Source: a virus. From it: a DNA stretch of 64,000 nucleotides. This document shows positions 1,130 to 63,555 of the stretch, in pieces. Both the position numbers and the translations under genes were made by a program. Location: the UHGV virus genome UHGV-1351772. One strand, written 5' to 3'. The notes under the pieces are model-generated. The model searched no databases and was not told the DNA's origin. It saw nothing but the letters and a program-made list of their open reading frames with translations. Position 1 is the first letter of the stretch. Each line of letters starts with the position of its first letter.

Positions 1130-3088
1130 CTAGCCAATAACGGCGTATTGATCCCTCAGATACCGCTGAATCTCGGACACCACTCGAGATAGCTCGAAAA
1201 AAACGCGGTCCGGTGAGATCGTCACGATACCACGGTAAGTTCCTTCTTTTTCGCCCTCATGGGTTTTACCGCAAGACGGACATTTCTGACCCATATATCC
1301 GAACACCGCCAAACGACTACGTTCGTTATAGTTCGCCGCAGCCGCCTCAAACTCGTACACATAGTGACGATCGGAAGACAGCTCCTCCAGAATCTGGATA
1401 ATCTTATCGGTATCCGTTTCTGTGGTGCTTACCTCACGAATTTCATCGTCCTGCATAACTTCTTCAGTTACCGTAATGGATTCCACCATATACGCATAAC
1501 GTGTTAAGCGACGTGCTTCGGTAATGAGGCGAAGGTGATCTTCACGCTCCCGCTCGGTGCCTTTCTCAGCCAACGCAGATGTAGACGCGGTGTTGTTCTC
1601 TTCCACCCAACGTTCTGTATTATCAAAGAACTTACCTAACGTCGAACGACCGAATTTAACGGTAATACCGTCGCTTACGAATGTCGCAGACGGATCTTTC
1701 AGGTGTTCTTCAACAAACTTACGTTGTTCCAAACGACTGATCGTAACGTCTTCTTTACCACGCTGTTGGGCCCACAGGCTACGCTGCATATCGGTGTAAA
1801 GCGACGTACCCATGCGGATACAACGGGCCAGGTTCAGACGAATATCTTCTTGATAACCACATCCCTCATGACCACAGATTAACGTCCATGGCAAACCGCC
1901 GGGATATTTCGCTTGCATCACACCAATCAGCAACAGCCAATAATCCGCAAGATCGATAGTATCCAGCAACACGGTCTTCATGTCGTTCCCTTCGCAATCC
2001 AACGTGCAGTCGGTAACGAAGCGTAACGCAAATTCAACCATATGGCTTAAATAGATACCCGAAGATGCGGATAACATCAGACCGTAGGTCTGCATACCGA
2101 TTTTTGCAGTTTCCAGGGTCAGCTGAATATCAAAATCACAGATTTCGCGTTCTAACGGTGCACGGAAGCCTACAAAGATACCCGTTGCGGGTAACCATAC
2201 CCAGTTAGGGATACCTGACTTACGACGACGACGAAGTGCCGCAATAGCACCAGTGTGCTGACTGTTACGTGGTGTAATGAAGCCAACCGGCTTAGACATT
2301 CCCGGCAACTGTACACGCTGTTCCCAGGCGGTATCTTCACGAGACAATGCACCATCGAATGCTTGCTGTTGGTTTTGTAAACGCGGTGGCATCATGTTCA
2401 GGGCGCGATACAAACGCTCGTACAGGTCACGCTGTTCTTCCGATTTAAACAGGAGCCGACCGTCACTACCGCGCGGAACACTGGAAAAGAATTTCTTCAG
2501 TTCACTACCGATGAGATTCGGGTCTTCACGCAAACCAATCAGTGTATTGAACTCCGTCAGAACTCGACCTGGATCGTCTTCGGGCAATTCACTGATTTCC
2601 TCGTGTGGTGCTTGCGTACCAAAATTCACATGGTGCTCAGCTGGTTGTTCTTTCACTGCCGGGGATGCTTCAGGTTCGTGATCAGCGGCAATCTGTGAAC
2701 CTTCGATCGCTTGAGGAACGTAAGGTTCTTCGGCTTTCTTCTCTACCACCGGCGCAGGTTTGTCTGCGACAGGGGCAGGATCAGGTTGCTGAATAACCGG
2801 CTCAACGACAACGGGTTCTGGCTCAGCAATCGTTACTACCGGAGCAGGCTCTTCTTCATAAACCGGTTTAGGTAGAACGGGTTCTTCAGCAGGTTTCACT
2901 TTTACGAGATTGTGATACATCTCTTCTGCTTGGGCAAATGAAAAATGGGGATTACTGCGTTTGATTGCCATAATCCCATCGTCGGCGGACATCGTAGACA
3001 AGTCAGCCTCAGGTACGACGACATGAGGTGTGTCTTCCTGAACCCGACGACGCCCATTACCTGGGCGTTGGTCTAAAGTATCTGACAT
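1130..3088 (-). CDS. hypothetical protein (652 aa) with Pro/Glu/Val/Ala-rich N-terminal linker and C-terminal Cys cluster
   Basis: Long ORF; low-complexity PEPVVVEPV-type region in residues ~60-150; CGHEGC and CPSCGK cysteine pairs near the C-terminus. Confidence 0.55.
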   Translation of the reverse strand: MSDTLDQRPGNGRRRVQEDTPHVVVPEADLSTMSADDGIMAIKRSNPHFSFAQAEEMYHNLVKVKPAEEPVLPKPVYEEEPAPVVTIAEPEPVVVEPVIQQPDPAPVADKPAPVVEKKAEEPYVPQAIEGSQIAADHEPEASPAVKEQPAEHHVNFGTQAPHEEISELPEDDPGRVLTEFNTLIGLREDPNLIGSELKKFFSSVPRGSDGRLLFKSEEQRDLYERLYRALNMMPPRLQNQQQAFDGALSREDTAWEQRVQLPGMSKPVGFITPRNSQHTGAIAALRRRRKSGIPNWVWLPATGIFVGFRAPLEREICDFDIQLTLETAKIGMQTYGLMLSASSGIYLSHMVEFALRFVTDCTLDCEGNDMKTVLLDTIDLADYWLLLIGVMQAKYPGGLPWTLICGHEGCGYQEDIRLNLARCIRMGTSLYTDMQRSLWAQQRGKEDVTISRLEQRKFVEEHLKDPSATFVSDGITVKFGRSTLGKFFDNTERWVEENNTASTSALAEKGTEREREDHLRLITEARRLTRYAYMVESITVTEEVMQDDEIREVSTTETDTDKIIQILEELSSDRHYVYEFEAAAANYNERSRLAVFGYMGQKCPSCGKTHEGEKEGTYRGIVTISPDRVFFELSRVVSEIQRYLRDQYAVIG

Positions 3089-5745: not shown

Positions 5746-7845
5746 TTACTCAATGATAGTCGCGGCCACCGTATTGTCGTATAACGACGCCGGACGTTTA
5801 CGTGACGTGTAGAAACGCACGTTGTCCAGGTTTTTCTGTTGGCCTTCGAATAACAACATCGGTACAGCTGAACGCATCGCAATCAACGTGTTGTGATCCT
5901 CGAAACGTTTGCCATCCATCACATCAGCATCTTCACTATCAAACCCAACCGCCGGGAAAGGATTGGTCGGTGATTCAACGCGTGATATCGCCAGCATAAT
6001 CGCGATGTGTGTCATCGGAATACCACCGAGCTTACGTTGGATATATTTAAACACATCAAATAACGCGTGCGTACATTGTTTCTCCGTAGCACCGCGCATC
6101 TGAACCAGTGTCGTTGGTTTTACCTTACCTGACTTCTTGCTCAAACGCATTGAGTCATCAGAGAACTGTTCGAAAGTATCCGATTTATCAGACGCAACCG
6201 AACGAAGTTTCAATTCTAACCCTGCTACAAACTCCGCCATAGATTCAGACCGATTCGTATAAATTAGTATCGGCCAACTCGGTTTCCATCCTTTCAGGGG
6301 AATCCGTACCAGCTTCTTCGACGGGAAGGTAATGTTATCGCGCTGTTTCAGGAAGAAATGTAAGAAGGCTTTCGAGAAGTTACCACAAACCCCCATACGG
6401 ACGTCAATGGGATCTTCGGCCAACACATTCCCAGCTTCATCCAACCGCAAAAAGGTCAGTTCGTTAATCTCCGGCAATGCCGTTTCGTCGATCACTTCCA
6501 AATCATCGTGATACGCGATTTGGCTGATTTCAGAATAGACTTCATCGGAAATAACGAGTTGGTATTCATCCCAATTACCGTACTGCGGTTTCTCCCGTAA
6601 ACTCAATCCTTTTACGGAGTTGTGTTTATACTCACCAAGATAATCCCGCATTCTTGGAGTCAGCACCAGATTCAGCAGATAGCGTAAGAAGTCCAGGTGT
6701 TTCGTTGAGAGAATCCCCTGTGTACCCTTTTCAGATATCGAGGTTGAGGCCAAGTGGCCTGGTGACGTTCCCGGCGAAAGGTTATAAATCAAATCACCCA
6801 TGCAGGTTGCACAAATGCTTTGACGCGCCATCCCCTTACAACACATCGCGGTACGAAACTCAATAGGTTTGCCTAAGACTTTCTCAAACTCCCCTTTCTC
6901 GAATCGTAACCACGGGCCACCCACACCTTCAAAACGATAACGCATTCCCACCATCGCATCGTACTTCTTACGCTCCAGTTTACTTTCTGTAAACGTGTGG
7001 CGATGAACGTGATGTGTACCACAATCGTCGTATTCGAAATACATTAACACGTTGGCTGCTAACTGTAGCTTACGTGACGCATATTCCGCATCGGCGATTT
7101 TATCGGTATTATACAGGTGAGTACGTGACGTCGCTCCCGCTTCTTTCAGACGGCTAATTACAGAATGTAGACCCGTAAAGAAACCTTCCCATACCTGGTT
7201 GGAATAAACGCGAGAATCAATCTCTGATGTTTTCCCACGTATATACGCCTGAAGAACCTGGTTCATTTTGATGGTCTTATCCAAGACCGACATCACCACA
7301 GGGTTTAAACGAAGTTGTGGGTCTTTGAAGATATCTTCGATAAGAAGATACGCTTCTTCGATCATATCCCGACCTTCTTCGTCGTACCCAGTAGGATACA
7401 TTTGTGCCCACTGATGAATCTGCGTAAAATTTCGGTGTTGGTAAATTTCCATCATCGTATCGTAGTCAATCGTGACGCAATACGACAACAGATTTTTCAC
7501 CGATAAGTTAAACGCATCCGCATAGACGTGCTGCTGCAATAAATAGCGGGTATCTGCTAAATCCACACCCGCTTTACGTGCTGCCACAGCTGCCAATGAC
7601 ATAAACTTCAGATGTGCGTCATCTGTAGCGGTGTCGCCATGTTTATACGCCATTTGCGAACTGATTGGGATCTGCGGATAAAATCGTGTTAGCCCCCAAT
7701 AAGGCCAACTGATTTTAATGTGGCGTCCTGACATGTTTAAGGTTATCCCGTCATCGAACGTCACTTCATATCTGCCGCGCAATAGCCACACCTGATCCGA
7801 GTTCAGTTTACACAGATCACGCACGTGAACTGGAGTGCCCTTCAT
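5746..7845 (-). CDS. multisubunit RNA polymerase beta-prime subunit, C-terminal fragment (set A)
   Basis: SISEKGTQGILSTKHL matches the conserved beta-prime block AAQSIGEPGTQLTMRTFH; start overlaps the stop of the upstream beta gene (ATGA). Confidence 0.6.
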   Translation of the reverse strand: MKGTPVHVRDLCKLNSDQVWLLRGRYEVTFDDGITLNMSGRHIKISWPYWGLTRFYPQIPISSQMAYKHGDTATDDAHLKFMSLAAVAARKAGVDLADTRYLLQQHVYADAFNLSVKNLLSYCVTIDYDTMMEIYQHRNFTQIHQWAQMYPTGYDEEGRDMIEEAYLLIEDIFKDPQLRLNPVVMSVLDKTIKMNQVLQAYIRGKTSEIDSRVYSNQVWEGFFTGLHSVISRLKEAGATSRTHLYNTDKIADAEYASRKLQLAANVLMYFEYDDCGTHHVHRHTFTESKLERKKYDAMVGMRYRFEGVGGPWLRFEKGEFEKVLGKPIEFRTAMCCKGMARQSICATCMGDLIYNLSPGTSPGHLASTSISEKGTQGILSTKHLDFLRYLLNLVLTPRMRDYLGEYKHNSVKGLSLREKPQYGNWDEYQLVISDEVYSEISQIAYHDDLEVIDETALPEINELTFLRLDEAGNVLAEDPIDVRMGVCGNFSKAFLHFFLKQRDNITFPSKKLVRIPLKGWKPSWPILIYTNRSESMAEFVAGLELKLRSVASDKSDTFEQFSDDSMRLSKKSGKVKPTTLVQMRGATEKQCTHALFDVFKYIQRKLGGIPMTHIAIMLAISRVESPTNPFPAVGFDSEDADVMDGKRFEDHNTLIAMRSAVPMLLFEGQQKNLDNVRFYTSRKRPASLYDNTVAATIIE

Positions 7846-10082
7846 TATTCATCGCCCCTTTTCATTTTCACCAATTCAAACCCTTCACAGCTGTGAATGT
7901 TTTTCATCATCCTGTCAATCTGTGAATCCCCTAACGGGAATTTATTTCGGTCTACCAGTGGACCCGGATTAGACGGGGTTTGAGATCGATAAAGCCCTAC
8001 TAAAATCTCACGATGCACCGCAGGGTTATTTGCCCTGTCGTGAACTTCTTCGTAGTTACCTGGACCATAACCCGCTAACAGTCGTTCTTCCGAAGGACCA
8101 GCCCATTTTAGCGTTTTATAGTTTATCGGATACGAACCGCGGCCTTGGTTAGACGCGTCTATCGTACCCAGATAATTCAGATACATTGACGAGATACTGG
8201 AAAACTCACGACCTGTTTTATCCAGACGTAATGTTTCCACACCACCTACGTAAAACTCATTTTTTGTCCATTCCTGTTTACCATCGAAATTAGTAATCAG
8301 GAGTTTGGATTTACGCGGTTTAAATTCACCCAACCGTTCACTGATATCGACTGGCGTGTCGTCAAGTTCATGTGGTAAGTAAATACGGATTGTAAAATCG
8401 TAAATCTCTTTGAAAAGTTCGCGTTGTAAATCCTCCGTAGGATGCGTTGCCTGTAGTGTATTGGCCCATTCTGGATTATAGCGTGATAGATAATCCATCA
8501 GGATTTCCCAGCTCTCGCTGATACGTCCTTCATCCAGCAATGGTTTGAGACGCATTTTCAACTGTTCAGACGCAGCTGACCAATACATGTGGAATAATGC
8601 TGCATAAGTCGAGCGACGAATTACAGCGTTCATCGAACGTAAAACGTGAACACGTTCACCGAATTCGTTAATCGGCATCTGTTCAACGGGTAATACACGT
8701 CCAACAATCCCTTTCGTACCCGAGCGGTCGGTAATCTTAGACGACACCGTTACCGGGATCGGATAACGAACAGCAATACGAATGGTATACGTGTTGATGG
8801 GATCGCTGAGTCCACGTTGTACTGGCGAGGTCAACTTAGAAAGAATCTGCTGACTGACATTTTCTTTACCGTATTCACCACGACGAATTGCTTCATCAAT
8901 CACCACGCGTATCTCTTCACGAAACTCGTGATAGACCTCGTACGTTTCAGAAGCGAACGCTTTTTCCAACAACACACACGCTTTCGGCGACCAGATAATA
9001 TTTTTGTCACGGGACATCGAGAAATAGAATCGTACGATGGCATTGTAATAGTCTTTCAATGCTAATGCGTATTTATCCAGTTCTCGTTTGTTCTCTTCGG
9101 TACAAGAAATATTGTTAGCACCATTCGCGCAAGACGTTTCATCACGCCACACCTGGATATCGACGATACGTGTACCGCTACGCTCCATCAGTTCTTTGTC
9201 GCCTGCAAGACGTGCTTTATAATGGACGGGATCGGCATCCACATATTCGCAACTATCAAAGAACGGAGAGACGTGTTGAGTTTCCCCAAGCGACGCATCA
9301 ATTGCACCGTAAAGCTCATCGAAACGACGCGATGCAATGACCAACCCATCGTCACGAATAGCCTCTCCTACATCCGGGAAATACCGTGGGACGCGATTAC
9401 CGTTCGGATCGATGTAACCGTAAGTATCCAGTAAAAACTCGTCTTCACGTAGCGTCTTTTCAACGATTTTCAAACCATAACCGTGGAGTTTTTGGGCGGC
9501 GTACTCAGAGATGGTGTAAGAATCCTCGATGATATCAGAATGCGAAATCGTAACGGTTGGTAGCACGACGCTATCGGCGTACTCGCCTTCCACCATACAC
9601 GACATCGTTGTAAGGATTTCATCCTTTTCCAACTGATCGGTTTCGCCACGTAAAATACTACGCAGTTTCATCGACTCACGTTTCTCAGATGAGAAGATGT
9701 TGTCGTGGTTAGTATAGAAGTTAATCTCTAGCACATCTATCATGGTTTTACCGCCCTTCATTTCTGCACGGCGGAAGAAGATAGCATGTTCTAACGCTTT
9801 AGAATCCCCACGACGACCATAACGTGTAAACGTCGCGCGGCGCTGACGACCGTCTTTGGTCATATAGTGGCAGATGCTACCGGGATCTTCTACAACGTCG
9901 TTGAACAGAAAATCGTGGTAGTTTATATCTGCCCCTGTAAAATGCGGCGATGGTTCAGGATTGTCGATAGGGACCGCAGACTTCATATGGTTGCCTACCA
10001 TCGATGCCCTTGCACCTGATACTTCGGTGATATTAATCTCACGGTCAGCCACACTGCTCATTAGCTCTACTGGCGTTTTCAT
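7845..10082 (-). CDS. multisubunit RNA polymerase beta subunit, C-terminal fragment (set A)
   Basis: KITDRSGTKGIVGRVLPVEQMP aligns with bacterial beta [24 protein letters not shown] (K..R.G.KG.......P.E.MP conserved). Confidence 0.7.
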   Translation of the reverse strand: MKTPVELMSSVADREINITEVSGARASMVGNHMKSAVPIDNPEPSPHFTGADINYHDFLFNDVVEDPGSICHYMTKDGRQRRATFTRYGRRGDSKALEHAIFFRRAEMKGGKTMIDVLEINFYTNHDNIFSSEKRESMKLRSILRGETDQLEKDEILTTMSCMVEGEYADSVVLPTVTISHSDIIEDSYTISEYAAQKLHGYGLKIVEKTLREDEFLLDTYGYIDPNGNRVPRYFPDVGEAIRDDGLVIASRRFDELYGAIDASLGETQHVSPFFDSCEYVDADPVHYKARLAGDKELMERSGTRIVDIQVWRDETSCANGANNISCTEENKRELDKYALALKDYYNAIVRFYFSMSRDKNIIWSPKACVLLEKAFASETYEVYHEFREEIRVVIDEAIRRGEYGKENVSQQILSKLTSPVQRGLSDPINTYTIRIAVRYPIPVTVSSKITDRSGTKGIVGRVLPVEQMPINEFGERVHVLRSMNAVIRRSTYAALFHMYWSAASEQLKMRLKPLLDEGRISESWEILMDYLSRYNPEWANTLQATHPTEDLQRELFKEIYDFTIRIYLPHELDDTPVDISERLGEFKPRKSKLLITNFDGKQEWTKNEFYVGGVETLRLDKTGREFSSISSMYLNYLGTIDASNQGRGSYPINYKTLKWAGPSEERLLAGYGPGNYEEVHDRANNPAVHREILVGLYRSQTPSNPGPLVDRNKFPLGDSQIDRMMKNIHSCEGFELVKMKRGDE

Positions 10083-19801: not shown

Positions 19802-20086
19802 TTACCCCGCCAATTTTAATAATTCCGAGTCAAGCGCGATACCGGCTTCCAAGTCCTCTTCAGTATCCTGGAAGAAACTGTTTATGTTGCTGATATTCTC
19901 GTTATGGAGAATCATGCAACTCGAAACCTCGTCCACATTCGTGCTTGACATAAACCCGTTGTCTGGGCGATAAGCCATGCCCAGTTCCATTTCAATCTGG
20001 TCGATTGCCAATCTACATTGTAACTGGTCGCCATCGAAATCCTGTTTGTCCACTCCATTCCTTTTGGAGCAGGTGTGCAATGACAC
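19802..20086 (-). CDS. RNA polymerase beta-prime catalytic segment (DFDGDQ), probable exon 2 of the beta-prime N-terminal gene
   Basis: Translation begins VSLHTCSKRNGVDKQDFDGDQLQ, matching the universal NADFDGDQ Mg-binding motif; listed start is GTG and an in-frame TGA lies 5 codons upstream, so it is unlikely to be an independent gene. Confidence 0.5.
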   Translation of the reverse strand: MSLHTCSKRNGVDKQDFDGDQLQCRLAIDQIEMELGMAYRPDNGFMSSTNVDEVSSCMILHNENISNINSFFQDTEEDLEAGIALDSELLKLAG

Positions 20087-20445
20087 CCTCCCATGCTTTC
20101 ACATGGGCACAGACTATATCATAACCGTAGGTATTGCTACCCGTAGGTCTCCCCCACTTCGCCGCTAAACTAAGCAGCTACTCTACTCGGTTTTACCCTT
20201 TCGATAGTCGTTGAACGATTTTCATCGCTGCTGGTTATCCATTATCACAACCCTTAGCATTATTGGTTAGCATAGGTTATCTTACGAATTGTTTCTGACT
20301 TTCGCCACCCTGTCGGGATCGTAAGCTTTAGGGGTTTCCAGCAATTCGAGGGATACGCACTAGAGGTTTCCCGTCTAGTGGGCCAGTGTTTAGCATTAGG
20401 TGCTTTGATGACGCGATCAGAAATACGCAGAGAACATTGTGTTAC
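20084..20445 (-). other. group I self-splicing intron (ORF-less), boundaries approximate (+/- 20 nt)
   Basis: Minus-strand core elements in canonical order: P aattgctggaaa (20335..20346), Q aaccagcagc (20227..20236), R gttcaacgacta (20205..20216), S atgatatagtct (20111..20122), P9 hairpin cccatg-tgaaag-catggg (20090..20107), with a G before the exon-2 frame. Confidence 0.65.
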
Positions 20446-21759
20446 ATCTGTCAGTACCGCTGAGATGAACAATGTCTGAATAGAAAGTTGAACCAATGTT
20501 GGGTTACGCAGAACTTCCAACATTAAGCCGAATCCGCCGGGGGATTCTTTAATCAACTCATTAATAATTTCATGTACCAACGGTACATACTGCATTGCCG
20601 CAAATGCAATGATGCGCTCACATTGTCGAGGTGTATAATCACGTCGACCTAACTTGTTCTCAATGTGAACACTCGCCAACGGAACCAACCAACGCCAAGG
20701 CGCAATAACTTTCAACGCATCATGAGGTTCAGAGATAGGAGAGATAGTCACACGTCCGCCCCACGGTACGTGTGTTGACCCGAGTTTTGCCCGATAGAAC
20801 CCAGGTTTACCTTCCATCACTTCCTGACGATGGTCAATATAGAAATACGCAAGCTGTCGATTCGCTTTGATCGCACGACGAATAATAAATCGTGGTTCGA
20901 TACGGCGTGCATTCGTGTACAACAACGCCACATTTTTTACTGCGTCGATAGCGCTGGTATAAACCGGATCGATAAAAATACCTTGTCGGCGCTCCTCCGT
21001 AACGATCAGTTTTGATGAAATAATCGGAAGGTGTCTTGGAAAGAATGAGAACGATTGTTCCTGAAAGAACTCACGCCATTCTAAGCGCACGCGCTCACTC
21101 TCATAACGGTTATTTTTCGTTGGTGGATAAATCTCCTTCCAAGCTTCCGGAGACGTAAGGATATTAAAGACGGTTCGATGGTGGTCGATAAAGTTTCGAA
21201 TTCCCCGTTCGAAGCCATGTTCGCCGAGTATTCTTTTCACCACGCGAGCACGTGTTCCCTCGTCCTTTTCTGGATGGTAGTACGGATCGATTAGCCACAG
21301 CAGTAAATCAGACCCGCGTTCTACCGTCACTTTGTTACGATTAAATTTTTTCAGCTTAGAGCCAAAGAAGGCATTAAAGAGAGACCAAAAACGTGGATTG
21401 ATAAAGTTACCCATCTCATCGGGAGCGCGTAACCAGACATCAGACGTAATCCGATGTTCAGAAACAACATGTCCGCAATGTGGGCAACGAAGCCCAAGAT
21501 TATAACGATGGGTAATAGGTGATTCGCAGGTCAGACTGCAAATAGGAGCCGAGTTGAGTGTTTCATCAACGATTCGGTTTTGGAGTATTTGGTTAATCAT
21601 CTCCGACGCTTCGATGGTATCCATCGTTGCAGCAACGTCATTGATAATAATCGGTGGTTTGTAGCCTTTTTCCTCCGCTTCTTGTATACAGTCACGTAAC
21701 ATCTTGTCGTGACTAATTAGTCGCCCCGAAATCCCGTAATATTCTAGTTTATGTTCCAC
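20260..21759 (-). CDS. multisubunit RNA polymerase beta-prime subunit, N-terminal part (set A), exon 1; last ~55 codons are probably intron read-through
   Basis: Cys cluster CSLTCES...CPHCGH (zinc ribbon), GKPGFYRAKLGSTHVPWGGRVTISPI matching [27 protein letters not shown], and VLRNPTLVQLSIQTLF matching VLLNRAPTLHRLGIQAF; homology stops ~25 codons before the expected NADFDGD. Confidence 0.6.
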   Translation of the reverse strand: MEHKLEYYGISGRLISHDKMLRDCIQEAEEKGYKPPIIINDVAATMDTIEASEMINQILQNRIVDETLNSAPICSLTCESPITHRYNLGLRCPHCGHVVSEHRITSDVWLRAPDEMGNFINPRFWSLFNAFFGSKLKKFNRNKVTVERGSDLLLWLIDPYYHPEKDEGTRARVVKRILGEHGFERGIRNFIDHHRTVFNILTSPEAWKEIYPPTKNNRYESERVRLEWREFFQEQSFSFFPRHLPIISSKLIVTEERRQGIFIDPVYTSAIDAVKNVALLYTNARRIEPRFIIRRAIKANRQLAYFYIDHRQEVMEGKPGFYRAKLGSTHVPWGGRVTISPISEPHDALKVIAPWRWLVPLASVHIENKLGRRDYTPRQCERIIAFAAMQYVPLVHEIINELIKESPGGFGLMLEVLRNPTLVQLSIQTLFISAVLTDVTQCSLRISDRVIKAPNAKHWPTRRETSSAYPSNCWKPLKLTIPTGWRKSETIRKITYANQ

Positions 21760-21770
21760 GCCGAATCCTC

Positions 21771-21814
21771 AACAAAAAAAGAGAGGGAAGGGACAGGGGG
21801 TTTTCCCCTGTCCC
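21771..21814 (-). terminator. strong intrinsic terminator
   Basis: gggacagggg-(g)tttt-cccctgtccc hairpin followed on the minus strand by CTCTCTTTTTTTGTT, directly after the stop of the 615-aa gene. Confidence 0.7.
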
Positions 21815-21843
21815 TCAACTACTGCTTACTACTTACCAACTTA

Positions 21844-23691
21844 TTAGAAAGTCGGACGCCAGTCAGTTGCAGCGAAGGACATACCGAAATCGCTACCAAA
21901 TGCGTTAGGACCGCTACCAGACAGCGCGAAGTTCTCATTACCCGTGTTAACAAACACAGAGTGAGTGAGGCTGTTCGCTGCGGTAACACCATTCACCTGG
22001 AAGTTGCAGTTTTCAGTAATGTATTCCACCAGTGCTTTACCAAACAGCGGATTGATCGCCAGGTCAGACGCTTCACCCGTTACCTGCGGCTGTTTGCTAC
22101 CGAACATGGACGCAGCCATTTTCAGCAGGTACAGACGCTGGTCACGCGCATTCAGATAGCGGTGAGAGTAGGACTGTGCACTGATGTAGTCGATCGCATC
22201 GCGTTGGTTATCACCCACTTTAGTCAGAGCGGAAACCAAGTCCATATCCTGGAAGCTGCGTTTCTGGCTGTTGCTGAAATACTGACCAGAGATGGTCGGG
22301 CAACCGGCAATAACAACGTGTTTGCACTCGAAGTTGGTGACATTGCCCAGCAGTGCTTTGAAGCGAGTGCTGAACTTAGTCGCGCCGTTGCTGGCCATGT
22401 TATCCAGGATATTGAACAGGGTGTACAGTGCGTTGGTGTTACCCATCCCGATTTCGCTCAGGAGAGTAGACAGGCCACCGATACCGTTACCTGCACGATG
22501 GTTCACCACCAGGGCCGCAGTCGGGTTAGCGAAGGTGTCCAGGCATTTCTCGATAACTTCACGGTTACCGTCGATTTTGCTCAGGTCAGGTTTTTCGCTG
22601 CCCCATTCTACATACTCCAGAACGCGGGAGAAGCGGCGATCGGTTTTGTTCAGCGACTGCATGAAACGTTCACGCCAGCCACCAATAGTGGCGATTTGTG
22701 CGAACGCGGCCAGTTCAATCAGCTGACGCTCGATAGGTGCCATTGCCCCAGAGGACTGAGAATCCATCAGGGAAACAACCACTTCGGCTTCCAGCTGACG
22801 CAGGTCCTGAGTACCGTTAGTCAGGGTTTGAGGTTTACCTTTATGGCGGAGGTTGATGTAACCAACACCTGCAACGCTCGGATAATTCTGGAGGCGTTCA
22901 GAAGAGAACAGCGTCGGGTTATTATCGTTGTTGCCAGTGCGAGTGTGGTCAACCACAACCATCAGGTCAGCACGTTGTGCAGAACCGTTAACGTCAGTTA
23001 CAGAACCTTCTTCAACTACGCTGACTTGCGCGGTGAAGCGATCAGAACGGGTCATTTTCAGGTAGCCCAGGTAGCCGGAATGACGACCGAAGATACCCAA
23101 TGCAATCTGGCCCATGAGCTGGTTAGCCCATTCTTCGTTCATGGTTTTACCCAGTTCCGGTACGCAGTTCATTACCATGAACTGTACGCTTGGCAGATTG
23201 TGCTGAGTTGCAATCTGGTTAGTGATGTTGTTCATCACACCTTCTTGACTGAACAGCTGCGCCAGGGTGTAGTAGTTTTCTTTACCGTTGATTTCGTAGA
23301 AACGGATGGACTGGCCATGTTCAAAGAACAGGATACCATAGAGCCATTCGTTATGGTTATCGCCGGACGGACCAGCCACGTATGCAGCAGAACCCATTTC
23401 AGAGTTGATGCCGTCAATAACACCCCAACGGAAGTTACGCAGGTATGTGTTCTTCTCCGCCATCTTCTCAATCAGGCTAGTGAACTGAGAAGCAGTGGAC
23501 ACGAAAGACATGTATCCGAAAGCTTTATCGAAAGTAGAGATGTTTTTAGACATCCCACCAAAAGCGTTGGCCGCATTGGTATTATCCACAGTAGCAGCTC
23601 CCGCGCCACCGAAAGACGGAATTGGATCTGCAGCGGAACCAGCAGCACCAGTCACAACGTCGTTTTGATTGTCAATAAACTCTTTAGCCAT
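21844..23691 (-). CDS. abundant 615-aa protein: candidate chimallin (phage-nucleus shell protein); alternative is major capsid protein
   Basis: Strong optimal-codon bias (ggt, cgt, ctg, aac, ttc), two tandem promoter motifs upstream and a strong terminator downstream; ~67 kDa with Gly/Ala/Ser-rich N- and C-terminal segments; directly upstream of the beta-prime N gene, as chimallin is in phiKZ (recalled synteny). Confidence 0.45.
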   Translation of the reverse strand: MAKEFIDNQNDVVTGAAGSAADPIPSFGGAGAATVDNTNAANAFGGMSKNISTFDKAFGYMSFVSTASQFTSLIEKMAEKNTYLRNFRWGVIDGINSEMGSAAYVAGPSGDNHNEWLYGILFFEHGQSIRFYEINGKENYYTLAQLFSQEGVMNNITNQIATQHNLPSVQFMVMNCVPELGKTMNEEWANQLMGQIALGIFGRHSGYLGYLKMTRSDRFTAQVSVVEEGSVTDVNGSAQRADLMVVVDHTRTGNNDNNPTLFSSERLQNYPSVAGVGYINLRHKGKPQTLTNGTQDLRQLEAEVVVSLMDSQSSGAMAPIERQLIELAAFAQIATIGGWRERFMQSLNKTDRRFSRVLEYVEWGSEKPDLSKIDGNREVIEKCLDTFANPTAALVVNHRAGNGIGGLSTLLSEIGMGNTNALYTLFNILDNMASNGATKFSTRFKALLGNVTNFECKHVVIAGCPTISGQYFSNSQKRSFQDMDLVSALTKVGDNQRDAIDYISAQSYSHRYLNARDQRLYLLKMAASMFGSKQPQVTGEASDLAINPLFGKALVEYITENCNFQVNGVTAANSLTHSVFVNTGNENFALSGSGPNAFGSDFGMSFAATDWRPTF

Positions 23692-23739
23692 TTTACTTAA
23701 TCCTTATAAGGTTTAATACAATTGTAGTGTTGGTTCACG

Positions 23740-35680: not shown

Positions 35681-35756
35681 TGGCGGGGGTGGGAAGTTTC
35701 GAACTCCCAACCTTCGGTTTTGGAGACCGCTGCACCACCAATTGTGCTACACCCCC
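35681..35756 (-). tRNA. tRNA-Trp (anticodon CCA), 76 nt with encoded CCA
   Basis: Hand-folded cloverleaf from the reverse complement: acceptor GGGGGTG/CACCCCC, D-stem GCAC/GTGC, anticodon loop CUCCAAA (U33, CCA, A37), T-arm GGGAG-TTCGAAA-CTTCC; anticodon and T arms nearly identical to E. coli tRNA-Trp. Confidence 0.8.
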
Positions 35757-59388: not shown

Positions 59389-62300
59389 TTATTTAAGTGT
59401 CGCGGGTAAATCAGGCACAGCCTCCCCATCGAGTATACGCCCGATGAGAATCCCGGCTTGTTCACCTACAGCATTCGCGGTACCGATACGTTGGATTGAA
59501 CCTACGATACGCGCATCGACGGAATCACGACCGAACAACACGTCCAGGTCATCACCATCCTCTGTTTTGTTGTCGCCGTACATGACTTCTTGTACGGTGG
59601 TTTTTAGCTGGTTAGCAATAACCATCTTATCCGCAGCGGCCATCTCAACGTCGTGTGTAATAAAGAATCGAACACAAAGTGAGTTAAAGGCCAAGGGTAC
59701 ACCTTCAACACGGTAGTCGCCGTTTACACTGCCTGAAACCGGATCACCGCGTCCGACTGCCAGTGCGGCCTTACGACGAATTCTGTCGTATTTACGCACC
59801 AGTTCAGCAAGACTTGGTGTCATGTCTTCGGTTTCACCGTGATACACCACTTCGATTTTATCCACGATACCACGTACCCCTGCACGAGGTGCGTACGAAC
59901 TTAAACTTTGCAACGTTGCGGCTGCTTCCTGACTAAAGGCACTCATATCGCCTGTCAAGTCGTCAGTAAACGTGCATAGGATTGTGTCGACGTCTACGTG
60001 GTCGCCCTCATTCACGATTTCCAAAAGCATTTGGTTGCTGTTAATCGTTACTTCTTTCAGCTTTGTTACCTGCCCCACCATTTTCTTCGCGAACCGTTCA
60101 GAAATTGCGTTGGAGTCTTCGATAACTTCTTCAGCTTCTAATAAAGCAACGGTAGCCAGCACCCCGTTTTTCCAGGAAACCTGAGTAGGATCGTAAATAT
60201 CAGGTTCAAAGTGTTGCTCGTTATACGTAATCACTGCTCCGGCCGGGAGCTTGTCACCGGCTTTCCAGCGTGTTACCAAGGTGTGCGGATAGAAGGTACC
60301 TTCGTGGGGGCCGAACCAGCGCCCTAGAGGAAAGGCTTCTTTACTTCCATCTTCGTACGTAATTTCAATGTGGTCTTTCGACAGACCAGTAATCTTACCT
60401 GCTTTATCAATAACGCGTGCATGTTTCACCGACGTACGGTGTGCGACGAATTTCTCCTGTTCAGTACGGTACGGGGTTGTGGTTGCCCCATTACAACTGG
60501 TGGCAGAACCTAACTGAATCCCAACGAAGTTTTGACGCTTTGCGTCGTCCATTAACGTATCGGGTACTAACCCGTCAATAAACGAAAGGGTATCGCTTGG
60601 TTTCGGGGTTTTCTCTTCACGTTTAAACGTAGTACCGTCAACGGTGTCAAAACGTGGGTTATTGGTGACGAAAGCAGTAATACCTACGTCGCCGTTATCT
60701 ACGGTGTTACCCGAGACTATCCCGATATCGCTGGGTTGGAACTCACGTGTGTGGTAGACCATCGTTTTACGATTACGACCACCTGTACCCCCCATCGTAA
60801 TAACGTCTTTTTCTTTAATTGACTGGATAGGGTTAGCACCTGGTGCCAAAAGTACCGACGGGTCGGAGTTAATTGCACCCCAAACCATGTCTTGCGTCAG
60901 TTCGAACTTACGGTTACTGCCCGGTGCGTTATTGTAGTTACGCATCGCTCTGACCATCGCGGTATAGATGTGGTAGGCAATCCTCTGATTTCCTAAGAAC
61001 ATCATTTCATCGCCGTTAATCTCTGGTAAAGAGTGGTCAGTTTGTAACAGTTCGTTAGAACGTTCCAGCAAGCCAATAAAGGTTTCCGGCTCACCCATTT
61101 TCCTGAGGATACGTGCGTGCATGTCGTCAACAAACGCGGACCGCATCTGTTTCAGCTCGTTGATGTACCGTGGTGTTAGGCCATCTGCATCACGTAATAA
61201 GTTCAGGTAAATGTCTTCACGGTCTGCTTCTGATTCGGTATAAGCAACCAGGTGTTTGAGATAACGATCCAAACCATGCAGAATCATCTTCTGTTGATCG
61301 TTATCGCAAGTAACTAAAAGTTTACAGTCTTGTAGTCGAATAATGCTGTCGTAGGCATTCTTATCAACACGTTGCCCTGCGGGAACCAACTCGTATTGGA
61401 TACCGAAATGTTTCAACATTCCCTGGAGTCCAAGATAGAACGAGAAGATAAAACCAAGCGACAAAGATTTACCCATCAAAGACAGCTCGGTCATTTCGCG
61501 AGGCACTTTCTGGTTATTAAAGCCCAGTACCTCTGCGATAGTTCCCACCGGTTCAACTTTGTTTCCGTTCACACCGTAAAGCATGGATTTGTCATCCATT
61601 GCCAGGATTGTTTCACTACGCGGACGTTTCGCCACCGGCAAAAGTTTGGCAGCATCGGCGTCTCTGAGTTGCTCGTCGTTAAAGAAGTTAACGGCTTCTT
61701 TGTAGTCGAAGTTCCACATATAGCCGTTCGCATTAAAGCTGGCAATACGACGCGCAATCTCCGTATACTGACGCGGCAGATGTTGCGTAGGATCGAACAC
61801 ATTTGCTAAACGTGCGTCGGTGACTTCGGTGTTTGTCGGGTCAACGGCGCGTGTGATGATCGCATTGGTTAACCAACGACCGTAGTCGTTTGCGACCTTA
61901 TCACTACGACGGACAAAGTTTTTACCGTAAGCGGTAGTCAGTGCGACAGTATCCGGTGCAACCTTACGGATCGGTAAGTCCACACGTTGCCGACGCATGG
62001 TGTATTCGACACCATTAGCGACCCAGGTACCGTCTTCGGTCAAGCCTGGGATGGAGAAGCGAACGGTTGTTGGTTCACCACCGACTGGCTGAACACGTAA
62101 AGTGTGGTGCTCGATAGTCCCTGTAACAGAAACCTCTTTTTCCACCGTGTGGTTGTGAACTGCCAGACCCAAACGTTGTGAGCTGGCGACCGCCGCCAGT
62201 ACGTCCTTCGTCATCATGGTCTGGTTGTACTGTTTCACCATCTGGTCGGTGACGTTCTCTGCCCACCCTTCATCAGTAACAAGTCGCTGAACTTTTTTCG

Positions 62301-63555
62301 GTTCGGCTTTAACGACAATATCTTTCTCGTGAACAGTCAGTGCTTCCCCGTAGGTTTCTTTCGGGTTATACGGGTTAGGTAACTGAACGAAACGTTTAGA
62401 CGATTCTGACAGGAACTGATATGCTTTAGAACTTAAGCGGCCCGCTTCAGCTAAGCGTTGTGCTTCCTGTTTAATAATCTCGTCATGCGGAATGACTTTC
62501 TCGACGACGATAGTCGTCGGTTTGACGTCTTCCTTCGGTTCTTCAATAACAACGTCTTCTTTTTCATCGAAGGTGTTATCGGATTCGACCACAGCGTCAT
62601 TAACAACGTCGTCATCATCGACAACATCAACGGTTTCTTCTTCGACGTCTTTAAGGAAAACACGCTCGTCGCCTTCAGGCGTTAGGAATTCCGCTTCGTA
62701 CGCGTTAGACGGTGCTTGTGTCATTACACGCACCAGCGTACGGTAGAACATCCTGGCCATTTGGTCGTCACTTAAACGACCGCCGGATGACTTACGCATT
62801 TTCTCTACAACACCCATGTTCATGGACGTAAAGCCCGTGTTGTGGGTGAAGATAAAGTTCATTCGTGACAGCTGAGTTAAATCCATTCCCGCGAATAAGG
62901 AATCGGATTGTTTTCCATAAGCCCAAGCAAACAACTCCAATAACCACAGCAAGTTGAAGTCCTGGAACTTCTCAATCTTACTCTTAACGCGATCGTTATA
63001 GGTTGTTTGAAACTTCTGGAACGAAGGTAGAGTCGAACCTAGTTCAATAACGAAATAGTTCTGACGCATGTATTCTTGCGTGTCGTATTTGAACTGGTTA
63101 ATCATCAACAGTTGGATGTTACGCAGTCTATCGTACCAGGCTAACTGGGTATCAGGATAGTAATAGTGCGATAGCATCGGTGTGTAGTTCTCGACCAGGA
63201 GAACTTTTAAGTCTTTGCGAACCAGATCGTCTGAGGTAAGACGACGCATCGGTCGGTTTGCACGGTGGTAAGCAAAGATAGCACGTTCTTGCCCCTGAAC
63301 AGGTTTGTTGCGCGGATGACCGCTAATACCGTCTTCCGGTAATTTAAAGTGGTGACGAACCTGTGCAGGTTTTTCTAACGGTTGAATAATCTCGAGTGTT
63401 GCAGGTGGCGCTAACACCACCTGGTCGAGATCAATGACATGGAGTACAGAACCACGTGGTATCTGTAGCTTCTCGAGCGGGATAATCCTCGGATTACCAA
63501 ACTCGTCAGTTTTACGCACCGAGAAGCGTTGGTTAAACTGTTTAATGAGCAGCAT
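59389..63555 (-). CDS. large RNA polymerase beta-prime-like subunit, C-terminal part (set B), 1388 aa
   Basis: Starts 9 bp after the stop of the DYDGD-containing beta-prime fragment; contains ITMGGTGGRNRKTMVYHT, resembling the beta-prime block SIGEPGTQLTMRTFH; assignment partly by position. Confidence 0.45.
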   Translation of the reverse strand: MLLIKQFNQRFSVRKTDEFGNPRIIPLEKLQIPRGSVLHVIDLDQVVLAPPATLEIIQPLEKPAQVRHHFKLPEDGISGHPRNKPVQGQERAIFAYHRANRPMRRLTSDDLVRKDLKVLLVENYTPMLSHYYYPDTQLAWYDRLRNIQLLMINQFKYDTQEYMRQNYFVIELGSTLPSFQKFQTTYNDRVKSKIEKFQDFNLLWLLELFAWAYGKQSDSLFAGMDLTQLSRMNFIFTHNTGFTSMNMGVVEKMRKSSGGRLSDDQMARMFYRTLVRVMTQAPSNAYEAEFLTPEGDERVFLKDVEEETVDVVDDDDVVNDAVVESDNTFDEKEDVVIEEPKEDVKPTTIVVEKVIPHDEIIKQEAQRLAEAGRLSSKAYQFLSESSKRFVQLPNPYNPKETYGEALTVHEKDIVVKAEPKKVQRLVTDEGWAENVTDQMVKQYNQTMMTKDVLAAVASSQRLGLAVHNHTVEKEVSVTGTIEHHTLRVQPVGGEPTTVRFSIPGLTEDGTWVANGVEYTMRRQRVDLPIRKVAPDTVALTTAYGKNFVRRSDKVANDYGRWLTNAIITRAVDPTNTEVTDARLANVFDPTQHLPRQYTEIARRIASFNANGYMWNFDYKEAVNFFNDEQLRDADAAKLLPVAKRPRSETILAMDDKSMLYGVNGNKVEPVGTIAEVLGFNNQKVPREMTELSLMGKSLSLGFIFSFYLGLQGMLKHFGIQYELVPAGQRVDKNAYDSIIRLQDCKLLVTCDNDQQKMILHGLDRYLKHLVAYTESEADREDIYLNLLRDADGLTPRYINELKQMRSAFVDDMHARILRKMGEPETFIGLLERSNELLQTDHSLPEINGDEMMFLGNQRIAYHIYTAMVRAMRNYNNAPGSNRKFELTQDMVWGAINSDPSVLLAPGANPIQSIKEKDVITMGGTGGRNRKTMVYHTREFQPSDIGIVSGNTVDNGDVGITAFVTNNPRFDTVDGTTFKREEKTPKPSDTLSFIDGLVPDTLMDDAKRQNFVGIQLGSATSCNGATTTPYRTEQEKFVAHRTSVKHARVIDKAGKITGLSKDHIEITYEDGSKEAFPLGRWFGPHEGTFYPHTLVTRWKAGDKLPAGAVITYNEQHFEPDIYDPTQVSWKNGVLATVALLEAEEVIEDSNAISERFAKKMVGQVTKLKEVTINSNQMLLEIVNEGDHVDVDTILCTFTDDLTGDMSAFSQEAAATLQSLSSYAPRAGVRGIVDKIEVVYHGETEDMTPSLAELVRKYDRIRRKAALAVGRGDPVSGSVNGDYRVEGVPLAFNSLCVRFFITHDVEMAAADKMVIANQLKTTVQEVMYGDNKTEDGDDLDVLFGRDSVDARIVGSIQRIGTANAVGEQAGILIGRILDGEAVPDLPATLK

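Follow-up and report, generated by a model that had tools for sequence, protein, structure and literature searches.

A predicted ORF-less group I intron inside the catalytic-motif codons of a non-virion RNA polymerase beta-prime gene in a phiKZ-like jumbo phage genome

In a stretch of 64,000 nucleotides (nt) from the virus genome UHGV-1351772, here called the window, an RNA polymerase beta-prime gene appears in two pieces on the minus strand. A beta-prime-like open reading frame (ORF) occupies 20260..21759, and a small ORF, which begins with GTG, occupies 19802..20086. An earlier note on this DNA had proposed that the gene is split by a group I intron that has no ORF of its own. Both reading frames are present as that note described them, including the TGA five codons upstream of the GTG. 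In our analysis, the putative intron lies inside the codons for the catalytic NADFDGD motif, and the locus divides as follows.

20392..21759, minus strand: exon 1, 456 codons from a GTG start, ending ...RVIKAPNA with GCU; assigned from the PHROG match and from colinearity with SEGD1, phiEaH2 and gp55
20042..20391, minus strand: predicted intron, 350 nt, ORF-less, 47% G+C; assigned from the Rfam core and the exon-junction limits
20260..20262, minus strand: TAA closing the read-through of exon 1, after 43 intron codons
20042, minus strand: omega-G, the terminal G of the predicted intron, within the conserved tail GUGGACAAACAG|GAU that spans the 3' splice site
19802..20041, minus strand: exon 2, 79 codons and a stop, opening with GAT TTC GAT GGC GAC, which encodes DFDGD

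The two ORFs match successive parts of one protein family. PHROG 2987 ('RNA polymerase beta subunit', 478 positions; E = 5.7e-141) aligns through positions 1-417 in the 499-codon ORF and through positions 412-477 in the small ORF, and this colinear split indicates that they are pieces of one gene. By homology, the gene is that for the N-terminal beta-prime subunit of the non-virion RNA polymerase, of the phiKZ gp55 family. A phmmer comparison with PDB entry 7ogp_A (PHIKZ055) gave E = 1.5e-38 over residues 70-499, and tblastn also matched PHIKZ055; the homology takes in the zinc ribbon, the NPTL block and the NADFDGD catalytic loop. Pfam returned only sub-threshold zinc-ribbon matches for the exon products. 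Judged by orthology, the polymerase would be absent from the virion and would act in middle and late transcription. The host of the intron is a phiKZ-like jumbo phage of the Chimalliviridae type, with SPN3US and phiEaH2 as distant relatives; its nearest cultured relatives are the genera Seoulvirus (SPN3US-like) and Erskinevirus (phiEaH2, Asesino), at ∼70% DNA identity.

Between the two pieces, the Rfam group I model RF00028, a search that the earlier note had suggested, matched 20407..20090 on the minus strand with E = 8.6e-12; its 56.9 bits exceed the gathering score of 50. The match covers model positions 1-253 of 253. A scan of the 64-kilobase (kb) window at E ≤ 0.1 returned only this match and one transfer RNA (tRNA), and thus no further intron. 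The conserved P, Q, R and S elements of the group I core stand in the order in which the note had listed them on the minus strand, and Rfam aligns them as P4, P4'/P6, P7 and P7'. The predicted intron has no endonuclease ORF of its own, as proposed: within its 350 nt all three frames contain stops, and no homing-endonuclease ORF would fit in the element.

The limits of the element could be set from the exons. The intron-free genes of SEGD1 and phiEaH2 read without a gap through ...CSLRISDRVIKMANG-DFDGDQFQ (...RVIKMANG DFDGDQF). Exon 1 of the window ends in ...CSLRISDRVIKAPNA, which matches ...CSLRISDRVIKMANG and the ...KAPNA of gp55, and DFDGDQL next occurs in frame from 20041. Homology is therefore not lost ∼25 codons before NADFDGD, as had been thought; it persists to the end of exon 1 (codon 456), and the PHROG match in the first ORF stops at this same residue 456. 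The read-through beyond it comprises 43 intron codons rather than ∼55 non-conserved ones. Although the splice sites had been described as not resolved, they can be placed after U20392 (GCU|) and after G20042 (CAG|), because this is the sole junction that satisfies the reading frame, the restored N-A-D-F-D-G-D, the preceding U and the terminal G together. U at -1 and a terminal G were found in all 13 homologous introns examined. The element thus runs from 20391 to 20042, not from 20445 to 20084. The insertion is at the catalytic motif, as claimed, but inside it and not just before it, between the Ala codon and the first Asp codon (...KAPNA|DFDGDQL).

Conceptual splicing yields the mRNA junction ...CCUAAUGCU|GAUUUCGAUGGC..., also written ...CCTAATGCT|GATTTCGATGGC, and a protein of 535 amino acids, which aligns without a gap to the intron-free orthologues and to phiKZ gp55; phiEaH2 gp205 has 533 amino acids. 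Such an alignment had also been suggested by the earlier note, and it fixes the junction at NA|DFDGD. Across the junction, KAPNADFDGDQL is identical between the spliced protein and phiKZ gp55 (PDB 7ogp_A). The tryptic peptide predicted to span the junction is APNADFDGDQLQCR, whereas the read-through frame reads ...KAPNAKHWPTR....

To follow the RNA fold, we aligned the window intron with five homologues, those of EC001, SaP7 (ORF removed), Raoultella phage VB_ZK_P1, EL (ORF removed) and Vibrio phage 2 TSL-2019, which are 55-75% identical to it. RNAalifold returned P1, P2, P3, P4, P5 with a branched extension, P6, P7.2, P3', P8, P9, P9.1 and P9.2 in canonical order, to which the P7 pseudoknot was added by hand. 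Over the six introns, 91.8% of alignment cells in paired positions form a standard pair, compared with 75.9% in shuffled and 37-46% in slid controls. Both partners have changed in 46 of the 89 pairs, against 23 in shuffled and 11-19 in slid controls, and none of 500 shuffles matched any of the observed pairing or covariation values. The core helices pair in 89-100% of cells, and compensatory changes occur in P3, P6, P7 and P8. Folded as a single sequence, the window intron is modestly more stable than its shuffles (z = -2.75). The predicted helices are these.

20382..20394, minus strand: P1, exon G20394-C20393-U20392 and intron A20391 pairing with the guide U20385-G20384-G20383-C20382
20358..20380, minus strand: P2 hairpin (CACUAGA...UCUAGUG), compensatory changes in 5 of 9 pairs, 96% of cells paired
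20348..20353, minus strand: 5' strand of P3, partner 20155-20149, compensatory changes in 4 of 7 pairs
20343-20338 with 20234-20229, minus strand: P4, enclosing P5 and the branched P5 extension (20333-20238); from the Rfam alignment and covariation
20215..20228, minus strand: P6 hairpin (GCGAU-GAAA-AUCGU); from RNAalifold and covariation
20205..20209 (GACUA) with 20116-20112 (UAGUC), minus strand: P7, 100% of cells paired
20161..20204, minus strand: P7.1/P7.2 region between P7 and P3', with P7.2 at 20178-20173 with 20166-20161
20123..20148, minus strand: P8 hairpin (covariation helices 14-16)
20090..20107, minus strand: P9 hairpin (CCCAUGU-GAAA-GCAUGGG), compensatory changes in 5 of 6 pairs; the Rfam match terminates here
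20086-20073, minus strand: P9.1, a hairpin within 20050..20086, the stretch earlier translated as 'VSLHTCSKRNGV'
20072-20050, minus strand: P9.2, compensatory changes in 6 of 7 pairs

At the 5' splice site, U20392 and G20384 form a wobble pair. This U-G is present in five of the six aligned introns; that of the Vibrio phage is misaligned by a 3-nt shift and has its own U-G (GAU|AG/CUGUC). The guide co-varies with the last exon codon, which is GCU opposite GGC in the window, VB_ZK_P1 and EL and GGU opposite GCC in EC001 and SaP7, and the neighbouring P1 pairs co-vary as well (C-G versus G-C at -2, A-U versus U-A at +1). A different P1 is implied by the Rfam alignment, with the 5' splice site after CCU at 20398; it was rejected, as it has only three pairs and breaks both frame and homology, whereas GCU|A/UGGC is supported by covariation. 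In P7, a U-A of the window is C-G in SaP7 and EL. Between P7 and P3', Rfam shows an insertion of 46 nt, in which P7.2 has compensatory changes in 5 of 6 pairs; the P7.1 hairpin was seen in each sequence by eye only. This placement of P7.1/P7.2 fits subgroup IA, the usual phage type, and we assign the architecture no finer than IA. Beyond P7, the P9 hairpin lies where the earlier note had put it (20107-20090).

The 3' end of the element allows two other placements. The earlier note had begun exon 2 at the GTG, with the peptide VSLHTCSKRNGVDKQ; a start at GTG 20086 is ruled out by the insertion-free orthologues and gp55, by a stop codon in EC001 and by co-varying hairpins, and the 48 nt in question are P9.1 and P9.2, that is, intron RNA, with exon 2 starting from GAT (D) at 20041. 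Alternatively, the 3' splice site could be G20090, which directly follows P9 at the end of the Rfam match. As the 48 nt at 20089-20042 contain no stop in the window and keep the frame, this would place a 16-residue insertion, RVSLHTCSKRNGVDKQ, between NA and DFDGD. However, neither the intron-free orthologues nor phiKZ gp55 have an insertion there, and EC001 carries an in-frame stop codon in the equivalent stretch upstream of DFDGD. The same 48 nt form two hairpins with compensatory changes (6 of 7 pairs in P9.2), which argues for constraint at the level of the RNA and not of the protein. A splice site at G20090 is thus scarcely credible to us, and G20042 is retained as the predicted end.

Together, the Rfam score above the gathering threshold, the covariation and an in-frame junction that restores NADFDGD bear out the proposal of an ORF-less group I intron interrupting the beta-prime-like gene, and we regard such an intron at 20391..20042 (minus strand), whose splicing restores the motif, as very probable. 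Several points weigh against it. Splicing is deduced from sequence and structure, and the self-splicing activity that we ascribe to the window intron is inferred from the established group I mechanism. P1 consists of only four base pairs in the window, and no convincing P10 with exon 2 was seen: hand inspection of the window revealed no stable pairing between the P1 loop (AACAC) and exon 2 (GAUUUC). Many group I introns do without P10. Ribosomes reading 43 codons into the intron could, if coupled to transcription, disturb its folding. Finally, a long-read transcriptome of phiKZ showed no splicing at three predicted intron/endonuclease loci (PMC10914365), so a prediction is no guarantee of activity in this phage group.

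These phiKZ loci also lend weight to a different history, in which the ribozyme is dead and the gene has become a split one, with a 499-amino-acid fragment lacking DFDGD and a 79-94-amino-acid fragment containing it assembling non-covalently. The beta and beta-prime subunits of jumbo phages are naturally split into several polypeptides (PMC7598289), public records label the pieces 'beta subunit 1' and 'beta subunit 2', and the small ORF is preceded by a GTG with GGGAGG nearby. Against this, the core helices are intact with compensatory evolution and score above the Rfam gathering threshold, and 13 copies agree in U(-1), the terminal G and the reading frame. A break at NA/DFDGD would cut the strand of the double-psi beta-barrel on which the catalytic Mg2+ is held, and it matches no known subunit split site (PMC7598289). 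Moreover, the in-frame stop upstream of DFDGD in EC001 leaves no common start for a second polypeptide. A dead ribozyme in a now split gene is therefore very unlikely, and a spliceable group I intron remains our preferred reading.

Introns at the same site were located in Seoulvirus, Proteus, Klebsiella, Raoultella and Pseudomonas phages, with the insertion point N-(A/G)|D-F-D-G-D. Those of Seoulvirus, VB_ZK_P1, phiKp_32 and EL share with the window the gene, the insertion point, the fold and the conserved 3' tail GUGGACAAnCAG, but the same-site introns are only 55-75% identical to that of the window; the orthologous introns score 51.9-69.4 bits with RF00028. An ORF-less form of 356 nt is present in six Seoulvirus records (EC001, JN03, 1252, Lh1B, SPLA3 and SPLA5c), and Raoultella phage VB_ZK_P1 has an ORF-less one of 365 nt. 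ORF-bearing forms are found in SaP7 and Proteus phage 7 (1404 nt), Klebsiella phage phiKp_32 (1430 nt) and Pseudomonas phage EL (1417 nt). Their ORFs sit in the P1 loop, which is closed by a long extra stem, and encode mutually homologous HNH_3 / NUMOD1 / I-HmuI-like proteins. The VB_ZK_P1 and phiKp_32 introns are nearly identical apart from the presence of the ORF, so that its gain or loss must be recent. None of the records of these relatives that we inspected annotates the intron; the labels in use are 'beta subunit 1'/'beta subunit 2', 'hypothetical protein' and 'putative replication protein'. The Salmonella phage SPFM1 locus (L009, LR535901.1 222258-227488) was left out of the comparison because its gp55 region looks scrambled: pieces of exon and intron do not follow each other in the expected order in a record described as 'XXX.', and a faulty assembly is the probable cause.

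No intron occupies the site in SPN3US, SEGD1, the SPFM phages and phiEaH2, nor in many other close relatives, and the intron-free allele (SPN3US or SEGD1) reads ...GCAAATGGA|GATTTC.... Whereas the empty SEGD1 allele is GCA AAT GGA|GAT, the occupied Seoulvirus alleles are GCT AAC GGT|GAT and supply the U at -1. We also observed that SEGD1 (L003, ∼1900..1960) differs from the intron-bearing loci L001 and L005 by one synonymous change in each of the three codons preceding the site, which may be a signature of co-conversion or of the target site. With exons 97% identical, EC001 and SaP7 belong to one species, but identity between their introns is only 76%, which indicates independent acquisition. 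In Vibrio phage 2 TSL-2019 (L011, 2460..2851), a related ORF-less intron of 392 nt lies 3 nt downstream (NAD|FDGD), with its guide adapted accordingly (GAU|AG/CUGUC).

VB_ZK_P1 (L007, 2372..2694) and phiKp_32 (L008, 2358..2680) have two intervening sequences in the polymerase gene, 12 nt apart. In order, these genes contain the Rfam-recognised intron at FNA|DFDG, a micro-exon GATTTTGACGGT (DFDG) and a second sequence of 311 nt, after which the gene goes on, colinear with EL, as GATACC... (D-TMYCYVLSDLKGKAKAYG). The 311-nt sequence is preceded by a U and terminates in G; it includes a P1-like hairpin containing a U-G pair (GGU|AA/UUGCC) and folds better than its shuffles (z = -3.4). No Rfam match was obtained for it even at E ≤ 10. 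Relatives of it, 255-258 nt long, occur in another polymerase gene of the Aeromonas jumbo phages ZPAH34 (L021, 2512..2766), ACP1, CF8 and PS1 (L022-L024), between the G and D codons of GGDFDG|D and adjoining the virion-type beta gene. RNAalifold on six copies gave group-I-like P1, P2 and P3 with co-varying internal hairpins, and a candidate P7 (GCGUA/UACGC) is invariant across the copies. This is probably a compact group I variant missed by the single Rfam model. A search for it in the window found no copy.

We next consider how the ORF-less form came to the window. A pattern made from the intron 3' tail and the start of exon 2 retrieved two IMG/VR contigs and five metagenome contigs of 221-243 kb. 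Of these, CYGL01000001.1 is identical to the window over this region, and three other contigs are ∼96% identical in the exons. Two further contigs, L013 and L016, represent one lineage with divergent exons, 73-76% identical to those of the window. Between the window and L013, the intron is 98.3% identical (344/350), whereas exon 1 is 74.4% and exon 2 72.9% identical. All other 350-nt windows in the 8.5 kb aligned have a mean identity of 76.7 ± 7.2% and a maximum of 90.3%. Going outward from the intron, the exons first differ at -7 and +9. Identity falls from 98% to ∼75% within 10 nt of both splice sites, and the high-identity tract stops short of the neighbouring genes. Intron divergence between the lineages (1.7%) is no greater than that within them (0.9-1.7%), whereas exon divergence is ∼25% between and ∼4% within lineages.

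These comparisons suggest that the ORF-less intron was recently transferred horizontally between phage lineages, which we consider likely. Vertical inheritance in both metagenomic lineages, with the 98% identity maintained by purifying selection on the ribozyme, would be the alternative: ribozyme cores are strongly constrained, and three of the six intron differences between the window and L013 fall in the unconstrained P1 loop. However, among the introns of Seoulvirus, Raoultella and Klebsiella phages the fold is shared although identity is only 67-76% and compensatory changes are numerous, which means that the RNA tolerates change. The drop in identity within 10 nt of both splice sites speaks against vertical descent, as does an intron divergence between lineages that equals that within them while the exons differ by ∼25% versus ∼4%. 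Because other family members keep the fold at ∼70% identity, transfer accounts for the pattern better than selection alone, and we judge vertical inheritance improbable. Strong purifying selection could still explain part of the 98% identity, although this is judged unlikely, and the short high-identity flanks (-7, +9) are unusual for classical endonuclease-driven homing; both points count against recent transfer. Among the traits of mobile introns, presence/absence polymorphism and decoupled intron and exon histories are found here, and an endonuclease of its own is not. No homologue of the HNH enzymes of the family was detected in the 64-kb window (best tblastn E = 0.26).

We propose a model where the pre-mRNA folds such that the last exon bases, GCU, would pair with the internal guide GGC, with the U20392-G20384 wobble at the splice site. 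A free guanosine bound at P7 would then attack after U20392, and the freed exon 1 would in turn attack after the terminal G20042, so that the joined exons (...KAPNA-DFDGDQL...) would encode the 535-amino-acid subunit. In nucleus-forming phages, transcription is separated from translation (PMC12908238), and we infer that the 43-codon read-through therefore need not disturb intron folding, unlike in T4. For its movement, the ORF-less form would presumably depend on an endonuclease supplied in trans. As occupation by the intron would destroy the target of the cognate HNH enzyme, the intron may protect an essential gene in mixed infections (compare PhiPA3 gp210). A further-reaching idea, which we hold to be doubtful, is that the ORF-less intron is an active player in competition between phages, a resistance allele against intron-endonuclease 'weapons' of the PhiPA3 gp210 type. 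It would then have spread across ∼25% divergence through a borrowed HNH endonuclease of a sister intron in a mixed infection, or by reverse splicing. Almost no exon co-conversion would have accompanied this spread, and the catalytic-site codons of the non-virion polymerase would be shielded once occupied. The pre-mRNA would be made in a ribosome-free compartment, where splicing would be uncoupled from translation, unlike in T4.

Two features lie upstream of the interrupted gene.

21788..21816, minus strand: terminator-like hairpin with a 12-base-pair stem, 8 G-C pairs and a T-rich tail, between the 615-amino-acid gene and the polymerase gene
21844..23691, minus strand: gene for a 615-amino-acid protein, PHROG 8316, with no assigned function

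Given the terminator-like hairpin, the two genes may be transcribed separately. From gene order only, the 615-amino-acid gene probably encodes the nuclear-shell protein (chimallin). Its product is 45-53% identical to its positional counterparts in Asesino, phiEaH2 and SPN3US, and the record of Vibrio phage 2 TSL-2019 annotates a 'nuclear shell protein' upstream of the gp55 homologue. A shell protein gene followed by the gp55 homologue is also the gene order in PhiPA3 (bioRxiv 10.1101/2023.09.22.559000). A PDB sequence search with the 615-amino-acid protein matched no solved structure. Antisense to this gene runs an ORF of 649 codons (21751..23700, plus strand), most likely a chance open frame opposite a gene of biased composition and not a real gene. 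Elsewhere, the window encodes further jumbo-phage polymerase subunits (5746..10082; 59389..63555), a DNA polymerase, the large terminase subunit and an SbcD-like nuclease. An uninterrupted GGDYDGD motif stands at ∼63747 (minus strand) in an ORF that lies upstream of the 1388-amino-acid virion-type beta gene (59389..63555) and runs off the window end, with no interruption in its visible part; this ORF is presumably the N-terminal beta-prime subunit of the virion polymerase. The single tRNA of the window is a tRNA-Trp (anticodon CCA) at 35681..35756 (minus strand), scored at 60.6 bits by Rfam and also found by ARAGORN.

The intron is a known kind of element. Phage group I introns of subgroup IA include those of T4 td, nrdB and sunY and of the DNA polymerase genes of HMU phages. 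The window intron has in common with them the P1-P9 core, with P7.2 and a putative P7.1 between P7 and P3', a position at active-site motif codons of a gene for nucleic-acid metabolism, the coexistence of ORF-bearing and ORF-less versions, and introns that are more alike between phages than the exons are; short stretches from P7 to P7.1 are ∼95% identical to introns of T-even-like phages. It differs from these examples in that the interrupted gene encodes a multisubunit RNA polymerase in a nucleus-forming phage and in that the ORF of its family is located in the P1 loop. Collaborative homing is known from cyanophage S-PM2, where the ORF-less psbA intron is mobilised by the free-standing endonuclease F-CphI. 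Both cases combine an ORF-less intron with signs of horizontal spread, but here no endonuclease gene adjoins the intron, and the high-identity tract stays out of the neighbouring genes.

Introns in the RNA polymerase genes of jumbo phages are likewise already documented. In PhiPA3, the gp210 intron interrupts the beta gene of the virion RNA polymerase and has been shown to play a part in competition (Birkholz et al. 2024, PMC11620839); 201phi2-1 gp273/274 contains a mobile intron (PMC2919709). Like the window, these are group I introns in an essential chimallivirus RNA polymerase gene close to conserved catalytic aspartates, and HNH endonucleases are employed in the family. In contrast to these, the window intron is in the non-virion polymerase, in beta-prime instead of beta and at another site, and, as this copy has no endonuclease, it cannot itself act as a 'weapon' of the gp210 type. 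Group I introns have also been described in PhiPA3 gp65-66, which belong to the non-virion enzyme (bioRxiv 10.1101/2023.09.22.559000), and in phiKZ gp72 and gp179 (PMC12676376). The Goslar record carries an Intron_gpI feature. For SPN3US, a figure legend marks introns in the polymerase scheme (PMC5105663); despite this legend, SPN3US is intron-free at the NA|DFDGD site. We found no explicit description of a gp55-family NA|DFDGD intron in the literature searched, the coverage of which did not extend to the AR9 (Lavysh 2016) and EL (Hertveldt 2005) papers.

The predicted intron would add a second polymerase, the non-virion one, and a second subunit, beta-prime with its Mg2+-binding NADFDGD loop, to the intron-colonised polymerase genes of chimalliviruses. 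Gene callers split this essential subunit into a 499-amino-acid read-through product and a small ORF; the correct product would be a single protein of 535 amino acids, which is relevant for annotation, proteomics, the design of antisense knock-downs and structures of jumbo-phage polymerases. Overall, related phages offer a natural series at one site, empty, ORF-less, HNH-carrying, shifted by 3 nt or with two intervening sequences 12 nt apart, which could be used to test the effects of endonucleases on competition and on the genetic isolation of nucleus-forming phages.

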